64,000 bases of DNA, from the NCBI RefSeq assembly GCF_003019035.1, contig NZ_CP027447.1; one strand, 5' to 3'. Made by a program: the position numbers and the translations under genes. This DNA comes from Escherichia coli (GTDB lineage Bacteria > Pseudomonadota > Gammaproteobacteria > Enterobacterales > Enterobacteriaceae). The notes under the pieces are model-generated. The model saw only the letters and a list, made by a program, of their open reading frames with translations, did no database searches and was not told where the DNA came from. Shown piece after piece: positions 12,958-15,004 of the stretch (position 1 is its first letter; each line of letters begins with the position of its first letter).

Positions 12958-12999
12958 GCAACTTAGAATAGCGACAGCACCACGTTAAGGGAGGTCGCT

Positions 13000-13260
13000 A
13001 TGTTCCGTTGTCCGCTTTGTGGCGCATCTGCCCGTATCCGCACCAGTCGTCCGGAAAATGATTCAAACACCGTGCGGCAAAAGTATTACCAGTGTAACAA
13101 TCTGGAATGCGGCGTATGCTTCTCAACACTGGAAGCTTTCCATAAATTCACATCAAAACACGCCTCCGGCGTTCACTCTTCAGAAGATATCCCGTGGCAT
13201 GATCTGCCAGCTTCACACAGGGGAAACAATCAGATGAGTTTGCCTTTATCTCAGAATTAA
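13000..13260 (+). CDS. ogr: Ogr/Delta-family zinc-finger late transcription activator
   Basis: MFRCPLCGASARIRTSR...YYQCNNLECGVCFSTLEAF: CxxC...CxxxxC zinc finger matching P2 Ogr pattern, directly after gpD. Confidence 0.8.
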   Translation: MFRCPLCGASARIRTSRPENDSNTVRQKYYQCNNLECGVCFSTLEAFHKFTSKHASGVHSSEDIPWHDLPASHRGNNQMSLPLSQN

Positions 13261-13451
13261 CAGGCAGAATTGCCGGAGTAACAAAAAAGCGATAGATTAC
13301 GCGCGGGTGCCTTTCGGCTGATGGTCGGAGGGAATACCCGAAGGCCAGATGTGGAAAGGCCCCGGAAAACATCTCTGTTTAACCGAGGCCCTAACATATC
13401 TACCTTAAGCAAGTGATAGGTTAGCGCCTCTCCAACAAAGGAGCAAGCGCT

Positions 13452-13592
13452 ATGTCGCAAAAATCGCTTACGGCCATCACGTTCTGCGTGACGGTAATCC
13501 TCATCATCTGGATGCTGCACGGTTCGCTGTGTGAAATACGGATGAGCTTCTGGGGAGCGGAGTTTGCGGCGTTCTTACAGTGTAAGCAGTAA
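13452..13592 (+). CDS. Hok/Gef-family type I toxin (46 aa), not in ORF track
   Basis: MSQKSLTAITFCVTVILIIWMLHGSLCEIRMSFWGAEFAAFLQCKQ: N-terminal TM helix then SLCE[IL]R...E.AAF..C motif characteristic of Hok proteins; SD AAGGAG 6 nt upstream of ATG. Confidence 0.65.
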   Translation: MSQKSLTAITFCVTVILIIWMLHGSLCEIRMSFWGAEFAAFLQCKQ

Positions 13593-13677
13593 GGAAACCG
13601 CGACGGGGGAGCAATCCCCCGTCAATCGGTTGCTAAGGTTGGCTGAAGTGGCACCCTATCTCTCAGACATGAACAAC

Positions 13678-13712
13678 AAACCCGCAGCGTAAAAACTGCG
13701 GGTTTTCTTTTT
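13678..13712 (+). terminator. Rho-independent terminator-like hairpin downstream of hok-like gene
   Basis: CCCGCAG-cgtaaaaa-CTGCGGG followed by TTTTCTTTTT. Confidence 0.6.
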
Positions 13713-13841
13713 GCTACCCTCACAAATGAGGGCACCATACATAAGCAATAGGCATAACAGATCGATGCAATAAATCCGATCGATAAAAACGATCGATTTG
13801 TTATCATATCGGCAGCAGTAACCACACAAGAGGTGCCGCAA

Positions 13842-14039
13842 ATGACGCAAAATGTACGATGCAAAAATTGCAACAAACTACTTGCCCGCGCCTCATTTCA
13901 CTACATTGAAATAAAATGTCCGCGCTGCAAAACACTTAACCAGATAACGAGAGCCATCGAGCACCCCACACACATGAGGAGTTATGACCGTGGGGATCGC
14001 AATCCAGCACCAACCAGCACATACACCGGAACACACTAA
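13842..14039 (+). CDS. Mu Com-like zinc-finger translational activator
   Basis: MTQNVRCKNCNKLLARASFHYIEIKCPRCK...EHPT closely parallels phage Mu Com (RCKNCNKLL...IEI.CPRCK...EHPT); 3' end overlaps start of the downstream gene as com overlaps mom. Confidence 0.75.
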   Translation: MTQNVRCKNCNKLLARASFHYIEIKCPRCKTLNQITRAIEHPTHMRSYDRGDRNPAPTSTYTGTH

Positions 14040-14775
14040 GGTTTATCAGACTGACAATGCCACGCTCTGTCGTGGGAATGCGCTGGAAATATTGCCGCTG
14101 ATTGAGCCAGAAAGTATTGATGCCTTAATCACTGACCCGCCTTACAGTTCGGGCGCGACACACAAGGCCGGACGCACCAACCAGGGCAGCCACGCAAAAT
14201 ATCTGAACGGCGAGAACCTTCATCGCTTTGATGGGTTTGCGGGTGAAAACATGGATGCCCGTTCGTGGGCTTACTGGACACAATTATGGATGGCACAGGC
14301 ACACCGCGCAGTCAGGCCGGGCGGTTATGCCCTGGTATTTACTGACTGGCGACAACTGCCAGCTTTAACCGATGCGTTTCAGGCCAGCGGTTTTACATGG
14401 CGTGGAATCATTGCGTGGAACAAAGGAAGGGGGTCACGAACACCCCATACGGGGTATTTCCGGCATCAGTGCGAATACATCGTCTGGGGCAGTAAAGGCC
14501 ATTTAGGTAAATCGCCTTCGGGACCGTTCGACGGCTGCATGACGTTCCCGGTTATCCCATCAAAGAAAATGCACCCGACCGGAAAACCAGAAGAACTTAT
14601 GGCAGAACTGGTCAGGACTGCGAATAGTGGTGGAACAGTCCTTGATCCTTTTATGGGATCGGGAACAACGGGTGTTGCAGCACTGAAAGCAGGACGCAAA
14701 TTTATTGGTATAGAAACCAGTGATCATTATTTTGATGTAGCAACACAACGGCTCAAAACGGCGATCGAACCATAA
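13984..14775 (+). CDS. DNA methyltransferase, beta-class N6-adenine/N4-cytosine type (DPPY motif before FxGxG motif)
   Basis: LITDPPYSS (motif IV) near N-terminus and VLDPFMGSGTTGVAA (motif I) near C-terminus; SD GAGGAG 5 nt before ATG 13984, inside the com-like ORF. Confidence 0.8.
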   Translation: MTVGIAIQHQPAHTPEHTKVYQTDNATLCRGNALEILPLIEPESIDALITDPPYSSGATHKAGRTNQGSHAKYLNGENLHRFDGFAGENMDARSWAYWTQLWMAQAHRAVRPGGYALVFTDWRQLPALTDAFQASGFTWRGIIAWNKGRGSRTPHTGYFRHQCEYIVWGSKGHLGKSPSGPFDGCMTFPVIPSKKMHPTGKPEELMAELVRTANSGGTVLDPFMGSGTTGVAALKAGRKFIGIETSDHYFDVATQRLKTAIEP

Positions 14776-15004
14776 GACAAAGCCCGCAATGTTGCGGGCT
14801 TACTCTACCTCTCGAAAATGTGGTCACTGCGTGGACATACGCTGATACAAATCCTTTTATATCAAGAAATTAAATCTTTGTTTTTTTCATCAACAAGGAT
14901 TTTCACGTTTGTGTTACCTGTATGAGACGAGAGTTAACCGGACAAGTGTGCCATAATCTCGCGGCCAGGCATACTTGCGAAGATTTCAGGTATAAGGATA
15001 CGTA

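Follow-up and report, generated by a model that had tools for sequence, protein, structure and literature searches.

A P2-like prophage in the pdxB gene of Escherichia coli: its attR junction and its cargo, a hok/sok-type locus and a mom-like com-methyltransferase cassette

Gene content of the prophage end

The window analysed here, i.e., the whole stretch of 64,000 nucleotides of Escherichia coli DNA, consists up to position 14903 of the right part of a P2-like prophage (Peduoviridae, PhiSM/Chuche-type). We consider it very probable that in the section from 12958 to 15004 a temperate phage of this type bears its cargo, of hok/sok and mom-like kinds, and meets the chromosome at attR. The last structural gene, gpD, whose equivalents in related lysogens are annotated as late control D or VgrG-Pvc8 family, is followed by ogr, a hok-like gene, and a com-methyltransferase pair (Table 1); Pfam family matches place all of these cargo genes in the order and at the positions read in an earlier note on this DNA, and PHROG and NCBIfam matches also back their identities. 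Escherichia phage Chuche (PP925824.1) shares the complete ogr-hok-com-methyltransferase-attP-int arrangement at 97% identity, and its Com and methyltransferase proteins are identical in sequence to those encoded here; Chuche differs in being a free phage genome with an intact attP, relative to which the rest of the prophage in the window is mosaic. The whole prophage part is matched by none of the complete genomes in the collection (best match, 88% coverage and 96.5% identity). Overall, the region is a new example of already known kinds (the pdxB site, hok/sok, and a Com-linked methylase), with modest novelty in the Dam/OxyR operator, which is conserved ahead of methyltransferases of this family.

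Table 1. Features of the prophage end and adjoining host DNA (positions in the window).
Feature	Position	Strand	Basis
gpD (late control D/tail protein), last structural gene before cargo	11716..12957	+	Pfam Phage_GPD, 62.8 bits
ogr, zinc-finger late-gene activator of P2-type phages	13000..13260	+	Pfam Ogr_Delta, 52.4 bits; PHROG 603, transcriptional regulator
hok mRNA unit	13305..13712	+	Rfam RF01794 match, fold, terminator scan
Putative Sok-like antisense RNA, terminator-like hairpin	13353..13410	-	Hairpin, -32.3 kcal/mol, z -4.6
hok-family toxin CDS, 46 aa	13452..13592	+	Pfam HOK_GEF, 30.1 bits (cut-off 22); PHROG 251, 82.8 bits
Inverted repeat CCCTCAcaaaTGAGGG, left edge of com-methyltransferase cassette	13717..13732		Sequence
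Dam/OxyR-type operator, GATC at 13760, 13778, 13791 (spacing 18, 13)	13748..13797	+	OxyR-consensus-like sequence
Predicted sigma-70 promoter of com-methyltransferase operon	13780..13807	+	-35 TCGATA, 16-nt spacer, TG-extended -10 TATCAT
com, Mu Com-like zinc-ribbon translational activator, 65 aa	13842..14039	+	Pfam Zn_ribbon_Com, 44.6 bits (cut-off 22.9)
Predicted translation-inhibiting hairpin, CCCCAC-N20-GUGGGG	13964..13995	+	MFE structures; enclosed Shine-Dalgarno GAGGAG; 3' arm with GUG start
Orphan beta-class amino-DNA methyltransferase, 261 aa from GTG	13990..14775	+	Pfam N6_N4_Mtase, 115.9 bits
Bidirectional terminator hairpin closing the cassette	14780..14801		Terminator scan
attR P' arm of PhiSM-type attP	14811..14883	+	Kept in Chuche attP, PhiSM genome end, AST240 and CEA212U attR
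Orphaned pdxB 5' end, native GTG plus 7 codons, reading into P' arm (VKILVDEKNKDLIS, then stop)	14862..14906	-	Translations
attR core TTTTCATCAACAAGGATTTT, 20 bp, crossover within	14884..14903	+	Identical 20-mer in attB, attP, attL/attR
Native pdxB-flk intergenic region, 98 bp, host DNA	14907..15004		By-eye comparison with K-12
flk, first intact host gene	15005..16000	+	Annotated flk in all matched genomes including K-12

The cargo unit nearest ogr is a hok/sok-type type I toxin-antitoxin locus. Its predicted mRNA has a minimum free energy of -177.7 kcal/mol (z -8.6) and 5'-3' pairing, with the 5' end GGGUGCC (13305-13311) pairing with GGCACCC (13650-13656) in a tac/fbi-like fold-back, and ends in a terminator hairpin (13678-13705) followed by a T-run. 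The putative Sok-like RNA has a candidate promoter that is a weak match (-35 TTGCTC, 13445-13440; -10 TAACCT, 13422-13417), and both this promoter and the ends of the RNA are presumptive. The Hok/Gef peptide is common to this locus, hok/sok of plasmid R1, and chromosomal and prophage hok loci, and the equivalents of the toxin gene in RefSeq relatives are annotated as Hok/Gef; R1 and chromosomal hok loci also share the mRNA of about 400 nt with 5'-3' fold-back and an antisense hairpin in the leader, which is putative here, and hok loci of Stx phages share 84% DNA identity. The locus differs from R1 and chromosomal hok/sok in that an overlapping mok frame was not found (no plus-strand ORF of at least 20 aa overlaps the hok start) and in that the Rfam RF01794 match (13305-13462; 47 bits, E 9e-9) scores below the gathering score of 59. 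A probable role of the unit is to stabilise the prophage or to abort infections by competitors.

The stretch from hok to the P' arm is a swap-in cargo slot. Similarity to cassette-less prophages ends at about 13712-13723 by BLAST (13712 in P88; 13723 in E2348/69 and others), and the hairpin at the far end of the cassette is unlike in sequence to the equivalent hairpin of PhiSM and AST240, which bear other cargo. PhiSM shares the ogr-hok segment at 96% identity but carries zinc-ribbon and TagO-like genes in the slot in place of com and the methyltransferase, and defence-like cargo (RES, TagO-like) occupies it in other prophages. A variable slot of the phage lies between ogr and the P' arm and is filled here by the hok/sok-type unit and then by the mom-like cassette.

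The attR junction and the rebuilding of pdxB

The att core, which the earlier note could not recognise by eye and for which it proposed an alignment with K-12, was located as TTTTCATCAACAAGGATTTT at 14884-14903. The 20 bp occur once in K-12 (attB, L001 3001-3020), where they lie in codons 2-8 of pdxB, once in Chuche (attP, L003 4912-4931), and at both prophage ends in the CEA212U lysogen (L002; attL 6046-6065, attR 41650-41669). The right end of the prophage lies inside 14776..15004, as previously proposed, because similarity to the core chromosome of prophage-free strains, including K-12, starts at 14884 (about 5100 genomes; megablast of 5426 complete E. coli genomes). While the assignment to the pdxB/flk neighbourhood proved right, the insertion lies inside the pdxB coding sequence and not merely in the intergenic region, and the claim that the core chromosome resumes at flk (15005) has to be replaced by resumption at 14884/14904, approximately 100-120 bp before flk. 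K-12 has no prophage here, in agreement with the earlier note; its pdxB directly adjoins flk, the prophage genes are absent from this locus in prophage-free strains, and the intergenic region of the window equals K-12 L001 3024-3121 by eye, strain polymorphisms excepted. Among the 5426 genomes, the pdxB site is occupied in 301 (approximately 5.5%) and empty in approximately 94%, which makes the pdxB 5' end a recurrent P2-like integration site.

Comparison of the four att sites indicates that a phage tyrosine integrase recombined attP with the 20-bp attB in pdxB; excision of the element would regenerate ...cataTTTTCATCAACAAGGATTTTcacg... The P' arm contains direct repeats 11 bp apart (TGTGGTCA, 14819-14826; CGTGGACA, 14830-14837), and the P arm next to int contains CGTGGACA twice, matching them; from the P2 consensus, we take these repeats to be candidate Int arm-type sites. 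The Chuche attP is composed of the P' arm found in the window, the core, and an attL-type P arm. In CEA212U, a closely related lysogen, the integrase gene (L002 6248-7252) and attL lie 35.6 kb upstream, adjoining pdxB, in keeping with the off-window left end expected in the earlier note; by comparison with such relatives, the prophage studied here would be complete, with its left end, integrase, and attL outside the window. Integration in pdxB has been described experimentally for Citrobacter rodentium phage PhiSM (Shae_phiSM, Xuanwuvirus; Magaziner et al. 2019, PMC6456863), which shares with the present element an attB inside the pdxB 5' end, the P' arm, and a phage-supplied TTG start and AAGGAG for pdxB; its published att site differs in being 17 bp long, compared with the 20-bp block of identity found here, and the reverse complement of the former lies within the latter.

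The junction as such matters little, but a phage in pdxB has to provide a new start for a gene of vitamin-B6 biosynthesis. At attR, the native pdxB promoter and the first eight codons are kept as a 14-codon stump; the orphaned GTG is at 14906-14904 and corresponds to the start codon of pdxB in K-12. An AAGGAG ribosome-binding site, a TTG start, and seven extra codons would be supplied by the phage at the off-window attL, and pdxB would therefore stay functional. [quoted passage not shown]

Predicted control of the com-methyltransferase cassette

The transcript of the cassette, from a predicted extended -10 promoter, would encode Com and then the orphan methyltransferase. The operator that precedes it has a triple-GATC pattern that occurs once in the 64 kb, with 0.01 occurrences expected by chance, and its OxyR full-site score of 15/20 is one of only three in the window that reach at least 15. 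Aligned without gaps, it is identical to the Mu mom operator at 30 of 44 positions, a value of at least 30 that no random 44-mer of the window reached. The 18/13 spacing of the GATC sites is the same as in Mu and is kept in locus L034 and in Yersinia, the GATC block is lost in some natural variants (L021, L027), and a TGnTAT(C/A)AT element is kept in L034, L091, and L093. OxyR would bind the unmethylated GATC sites and repress, and Dam methylation would relieve this repression.

The predicted promoter overlaps the second and third GATC sites and is the only promoter-like match in 12900-15100. No Ogr-type TGT-N12-ACA site was found upstream of com (the sole match in the region lies inside com), nor was any C-type activator site recognisable there. 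The Mu segment between the third GATC site and com that holds TTAT-N6-ATAA, which we take to be the Mu C site, is absent here, and the interval is shorter by 27 nt. The promoter looks self-sufficient. A self-sufficient promoter would be awkward for a toxic enzyme made only in the lytic phase and may allow expression in lysogens.

A second layer of control would act on translation. Com falls in PHROG 13819 ("gpCom control of modification") and has 59.5% identity with Mu Com over residues 3-43, and the com and methyltransferase genes overlap by 50 nt, as com and mom do in Mu; by opening the predicted hairpin, Com would expose the Shine-Dalgarno sequence of the methyltransferase together with its GUG start at 13990. 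Both the stem and the length of the 20-nt loop of the hairpin are invariant in six loci, and in each of them the GTG shares the frame of the methyltransferase gene that follows; because the stems never vary, covariation support was not obtainable across these loci and the evidence is one of conservation only. The hairpin was found in E. coli, Yersinia, Salmonella, an unassigned lineage, and a Mu-like phage with a C5-methylase, and the unit of Com and hairpin looks like a portable translational gate, set before unrelated DNA-modifying enzymes. Automatic annotation starts the methyltransferase at ATG 13984, and locus L034 has no ATG at that position; the start given in RefSeq-style records is probably a mis-annotation, the proper one being GTG 13990, which lies within the regulatory hairpin.

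The methyltransferase matches the N6_N4_Mtase domain over its full length, and its motif IV (DPPY, residues 51-54) lies N-terminal to motif I (DPFMGSGTT, FxGxG; residues 221-229), both invariant in an alignment of 25 sequences. Its closest solved relatives are the M1.HpyAVI-type "DpnA" and CcrM. An identity with M.EcoGII was rejected, as that enzyme has 349 aa versus 261 aa here and the paper on M.EcoGII contains no link to Com. Methylome papers on O145 and ST131 yielded nothing about this methyltransferase.

Comparison with known systems and alternative readings

The cassette resembles the com-mom operon of Mu in having a Com homologue, a com gene that overlaps the next gene by 50 nt, a GUG start within a hairpin (CCCAC-N11-GUGGG with the mom GTG start in Mu), and three upstream GATC sites in an OxyR-type site, to which OxyR binding is predicted here; the role of OxyR at the Mu mom operator is established and is cited in PMC2909390. 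It differs from Mu in its enzyme, a beta-class SAM methyltransferase instead of the adenine-modifying Mom with its acyltransferase fold, in its hairpin loop (20 versus 11 nt), in the shorter distance between GATC block and com, in having no recognisable C-activator site, and in its host element, a P2-like integrating phage instead of a transposable one. Com-linked m6A methylases in place of Mom have been reported to have very relaxed specificity and to be silent in lysogens (PMC3299994), with non-specific activity shown for the Haemophilus and Neisseria enzymes only, and a Com plus N4/N6 methylase pair with the same Pfam domain is annotated in the P2-like Burkholderia phage KS5 (PMC3091744). 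A small Com gene overlapping the start of an orphan methylase is common to Hin1523, Hia5, and Nma1821 (PMC3299994), B3 ORF48, KS5 gp20-gp21 (PMC3091744), Smp131 gp04-gp05, and the present pair; for Hia5 and Hin1523 the likeness established is the position downstream of com. The gp04-gp05 pair of Stenotrophomonas phage Smp131, which like KS5 is P2-like, includes a protein, gp04, that is 48% identical to the enzyme described here; the cassette stands at the Z/fun position in KS5 and adjoins the portal gene in Smp131. ORF48 of B3 is likewise a Com-linked methylase in a phage accessory position; it was rejected as a homologue, being of an unrelated methylase class.

By analogy with Mom and the Com-linked methylases of Mu-like phages, for which protection from restriction in the next host has been shown, the enzyme most likely methylates replicating phage DNA and would thus shield progeny from restriction. 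That it is instead the modification half of a prophage-borne restriction-modification defence system seems to us extremely improbable: although PADLOC matches it best to Type II methyltransferase models and other prophages carry defence-like cargo in the slot, the interval from hok to attR contains no candidate nuclease ORF, the only neighbours of the enzyme there being com and the terminator, and the com-methyltransferase unit moves alone, as two genes, between att sites and phage types. It is also quite improbable, if less so, that the element is a decayed, non-excisable remnant whose junction is a fossil with no working attR. The left part of the prophage is indeed off-window, the part within it is mosaic against every complete genome searched, and pseudogenes occur in related copies (a split gpD in CEA212U and frameshifted genes in E110019); however, the window has intact gpD, ogr, hok, com, and methyltransferase genes as well as intact P' arm repeats and an intact core, and the region is 97% identical to the genome of Chuche, a free, plaque-forming phage.

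A function in the lysogen, with the cassette acting as a lysogenic-conversion module whose heritable ON/OFF states are set by Dam/OxyR competition, deserves more weight than these two readings, but we still judge it rather unlikely next to lytic anti-restriction. The operator resembles that of agn43 (GATC spacing 19/13, compared with 18/13 here), its pair of GATC sites 13 bp apart agrees with the OxyR half-sites in the phase-variable P22 gtr (PMC2909390), and the predicted promoter has an extended -10 element and no recognisable activator site. Shared with the agn43 and P22 gtr switches are the clustered GATC sites, the 13-bp pair spacing, and an OxyR-consensus-like sequence at or next to the promoter; those switches differ in that they control surface structures and are proven to be phase-variable, while control of a methyltransferase is predicted here. 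The same operator in Mu, however, serves a late lytic gene, the Com-linked methylases studied to date are silent in lysogens and harmful when expressed constitutively, and the transcription start site considered here is a prediction. If the cassette did vary in phase, lysogen subpopulations would carry an extra methylation pattern (a prophage-borne "phasevarion").

The operator is seen with Com in enterobacterial P2-like prophages, and the same GATC triplet, which also speaks for phase variation, stands directly upstream of com-less methyltransferase homologues in other viral contigs. One might suspect that the Dam-OxyR operator is an ancestral, conserved partner of the methyltransferase family that would make its expression in lysogens bistable, a proposal that we put forward tentatively and with considerable doubt. 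Were it true, the Dam mark would gate the writing of another mark and could generate heritable methylome heterogeneity in E. coli populations; if the operator behaves like that of agn43, layered epigenetic control would have a natural example in these prophages. The more distant methyltransferase homologues (51-62% identity) mostly have no com upstream, and one distant homologue lies in a Mu-like lysis cassette in Salmonella.

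Prophage right end and attachment at pdxB

When window positions 11500-16500 were searched by megablast against 5426 complete E. coli genomes, prophage-free strains, including K-12, showed similarity only from 14884 on, with pdxB directly to the left of this point; this agrees with the earlier note, which had placed the prophage right end within 14776..15004 at the pdxB/flk locus. All genes named in that note were also borne out by an ORF map and family searches (see table), and RefSeq gene names agree in lysogen CEA212U, in which the corresponding stretch is 98.9% identical to the window. 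The att core, which had not been spotted by eye, was located by reading three junction types and scanning for shared sequence. The 20-mer TTTTCATCAACAAGGATTTT is common to attB, attP, attL, and attR, with one copy each in the window, the K-12 empty site, and free phage Chuche (PP925824.1), where it lies between the methyltransferase gene and int, and two copies, 35.6 kb apart, in CEA212U, which supplies the attL data as the left end of the window's prophage lies off-window; the flanks recombine exactly as attB x attP predicts. In K-12, where pdxB starts with GTG, the core represents pdxB codons 2-8, and the window retains a pdxB stump consisting of the native start plus 7 codons (VKILVDEKNKDLIS*). 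At the CEA212U attL, pdxB is re-initiated at a phage TTG after AAGGAG, which adds MSETEKGL. Sequence aligning with the window P' arm is present in the Chuche attP, at the end of PhiSM's genome record, and in other lysogens. The arm contains the direct repeats TGTGGTCA and CGTGGACA with a spacing of 11 bp, and the P arm beside int contains CGTGGACA twice; going by the P2 consensus, these repeats are putative integrase arm sites.

Coordinates of features in the window and in compared loci
Feature	Position	Remark
Tail fibre gene	848-2353	
Tail-fibre assembly gene	2904-3515	strand opposite to tail fibre gene
Four alternative Collar-domain C-terminal cassettes	3515-3973, 3984-4451, 4462-4890, 4901-5464	strand opposite to tail fibre gene
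Serine invertase (Resolvase + HTH_7)	in ORF 5272-6078	
gpD	11716-12957	
ogr	13000-13260	
Hok/Gef peptide	13452-13592	
GATC sites	13760, 13778, 13791	
Predicted promoter	13780-13807	TCGATA-16-TG-TATCAT
Mu Com-like zinc ribbon	13842-14039	
Methyltransferase	end at 14775	N6_N4_Mtase domain
P' arm	~14811-14883	
att core	14884-14903	
pdxB stump	14906-14862	minus strand
flk	from 15005	
attB, K-12	L001 3001-3020	
attP, Chuche	L003 4912-4931	
attL, attR, CEA212U	6046-6065, 41650-41669	
GATC triplets, com-less viral contigs	L070 3934-3968, L071 3935-3969, L072 3921-3955, L079 1816-1850	spacing 18/13
GATC triplet, com-less viral contig	L083 ~3760-3795	spacing 19/13

The Citrobacter rodentium phage PhiSM uses the same integration site in the 5' end of pdxB; its published 17-bp att site, ATCCTTGTTGATGAAAA, lies 6 bp inside pdxB, it shows the same TTG/AAGGAG arrangement as the CEA212U attL, and its K-12 lysogens grow on minimal medium (PMC6456863). 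The finding of the earlier note is real and its interpretation correct; both the junction and the way in which the phage integrates have been described before, and the cargo consists of hok and com-methyltransferase modules, both new examples of kinds already known. With a junction-spanning query, the pdxB site was occupied in 301 of the 5426 genomes. No complete genome in this collection matched the whole prophage part (best match, 88% coverage at 96.5% identity), and the element is thus mosaic. The P' arm and core (14811-14904) also showed ~89% matches on several E. coli plasmids (NZ_CP025846.1 15651-15745; NZ_LR883008.1 17795-17889), within a gene whose annotation reads "topoisomerase C-terminal repeat-containing protein"; these matches may mark an attachment sequence that is secondary or ancestral. 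The PhiSM study mentions a C. rodentium traF site (PMC6456863).

Cargo slot, hok, and the com-methyltransferase module

P88, PhiSM, and related members of Xuanwuvirus resemble the window across ogr and hok as far as ~13666-13723, and the conserved P' arm forms the right limit of a slot whose contents differ among prophages at the same att site: com-methyltransferase in the window, Chuche, and CEA212U; a zinc-ribbon gene with TagO-like genes in PhiSM and AST240; and RES, zinc-ribbon, and TagO-like genes in 14EC020. The com-methyltransferase unit was found in 170 genomes at a coverage of at least 80%. It is also located beside attachment sites of other kinds, namely raiA/bamD in CFS3292 and, in Yersinia kristensenii, ihfA/pheT. 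A slot of this sort is not new, since a 2026 preprint describes a number of minor hotspots for cargo close to the att sites and integrases of P2. With regard to hok, region 13305-13712 folds at -177.7 kcal/mol (z -8.6 vs shuffles), with the 5' GGGUGCC of the mRNA pairing with GGCACCC (13650-13656) in a fold-back of the kind known from hok mRNAs, and the terminator scan placed a terminator after it. The Rfam sok/hok-leader model matched 13305-13462 (47 bits, E 9e-9), below its gathering score of 59, and Sok could correspond to a minus-strand hairpin in the leader region (z -4.6), which has a weak promoter. As a search of the locus for a mok frame of at least 20 aa found none, we class it as a type I toxin locus of the hok family for which the test of membership is incomplete.

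Over residues 3-43, the window Com shares 59.5% identity with Mu Com. A predicted hairpin at the com/methyltransferase junction has CCCCAC (13964-13969) and GUGGGG (13990-13995) as its arms and a 20-nt loop that contains GAGGAG; the Mu counterpart is CCCAC-N11-GUGGG, with the mom GTG start within the 3' arm. Stem and loop length were invariant, and loop sequences varied, across the window, the close variant L021 (96% methyltransferase identity), a lineage at 74% identity, Yersinia (73%), Salmonella (66-67%), and a Mu-like phage with a downstream C5-cytosine methylase; the hairpin GTG was in frame with the downstream enzyme at every locus compared, and in the 74% lineage, the start position used by annotation pipelines does not hold an ATG. 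In the window, the RefSeq-style ATG (13984) lies 2 nt past GAGGAG and the GTG (13990) 8 nt past it; counted from this GTG, the methyltransferase gene overlaps com by 50 nt, as mom does in Mu. From the conservation across these loci and by analogy with Mu, we conclude that the methyltransferase probably starts at GTG 13990 and that Com would gate its translation. Stx2c phage LC727881.1 contains an inserted Mu-like phage (L087 1556-2807), in which a homologue sharing 65% identity with the window Com precedes a C5-cytosine methyltransferase; this enzyme starts at the GTG of the same CCCCAC-N20-GTGGGG hairpin, and upstream lie two GATC sites with a spacing of 13 bp. It seems that com and the hairpin can be passed as a unit from one enzyme to an unrelated one.

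In the window methyltransferase, DPPY is N-terminal to FxGxG, a beta-class order that, as read from sequence, suggests N6-adenine methylation; among solved structures, small M1.HpyAVI-type enzymes and CcrM are the closest to it, and neither the ORF map of the window nor PADLOC revealed a nuclease partner. Com followed by an adenine methylase that replaces Mom has been described in FluMu, Pnm1, Hia5, and B3, these methylases showing very relaxed specificity and being silent in lysogens (PMC3299994). Among P2-like phages, Burkholderia phage KS5 has annotated Com and N4/N6 methylase genes (PMC3091744), a Com-like gene in Stenotrophomonas phage Smp131 overlaps a methylase 48% identical to that of the window, and in the Chuche annotation itself the two genes already appear as "gpCom control of modification" and "DNA methyltransferase". 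A Salmonella Mu-like prophage (L095 2807-4286) carries a 62%-identical methyltransferase without com, between the holin-like gene and the lysozyme of its lysis cassette, an arrangement that links the enzyme to late expression by another route.

Predicted GATC operator upstream of com

The three GATC sites form GATC-N14-GATC-N9-GATC, which occurs once in the 64-kb window (0.01 expected by chance). The region upstream of Mu mom shares the 18/13 spacing and, ungapped, is identical at 30 of 44 positions, a level reached by none of 20,000 random window 44-mers; spacing in K-12 agn43 is 19/13, and the 13-bp GATC pair is shared with P22 gtr, where it arranges the OxyR half-sites (PMC2909390). The OxyR tetramer consensus is matched at 15 of 20 positions at 13748 and 13757, with at least 15 matches at three positions in the whole window, and the predicted promoter, the sole sigma-70-like match in 12900-15100, overlaps the second and third GATC. 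In a limited literature search we found no published description of a conserved mom/agn43-type GATC operator before this methyltransferase family; should Dam/OxyR control through this operator render the enzyme phase-variable in lysogens, this would add modest interest.

Two natural cassette variants, L021 and L027, have a 31-bp deletion (~3790-3810, corresponding to window 13760-13797) that removes the first and second GATC, and G-to-A changes in the third box, with promoter, com, and hairpin intact; they may represent "locked" versions that lack the operator. Com-less methyltransferase homologues (54-55% identity) in metagenomic viral contigs have a GATC triplet directly upstream of the start codon, with divergent sequence between the GATCs.

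Probable invertible tail-fibre region

In window 848-6078, inverted repeats of 180-240 nt connect 2000-2648 with each Collar-domain cassette, and the region looks like a multi-cassette host-range switch of the Gin/Min type with four alternatives.
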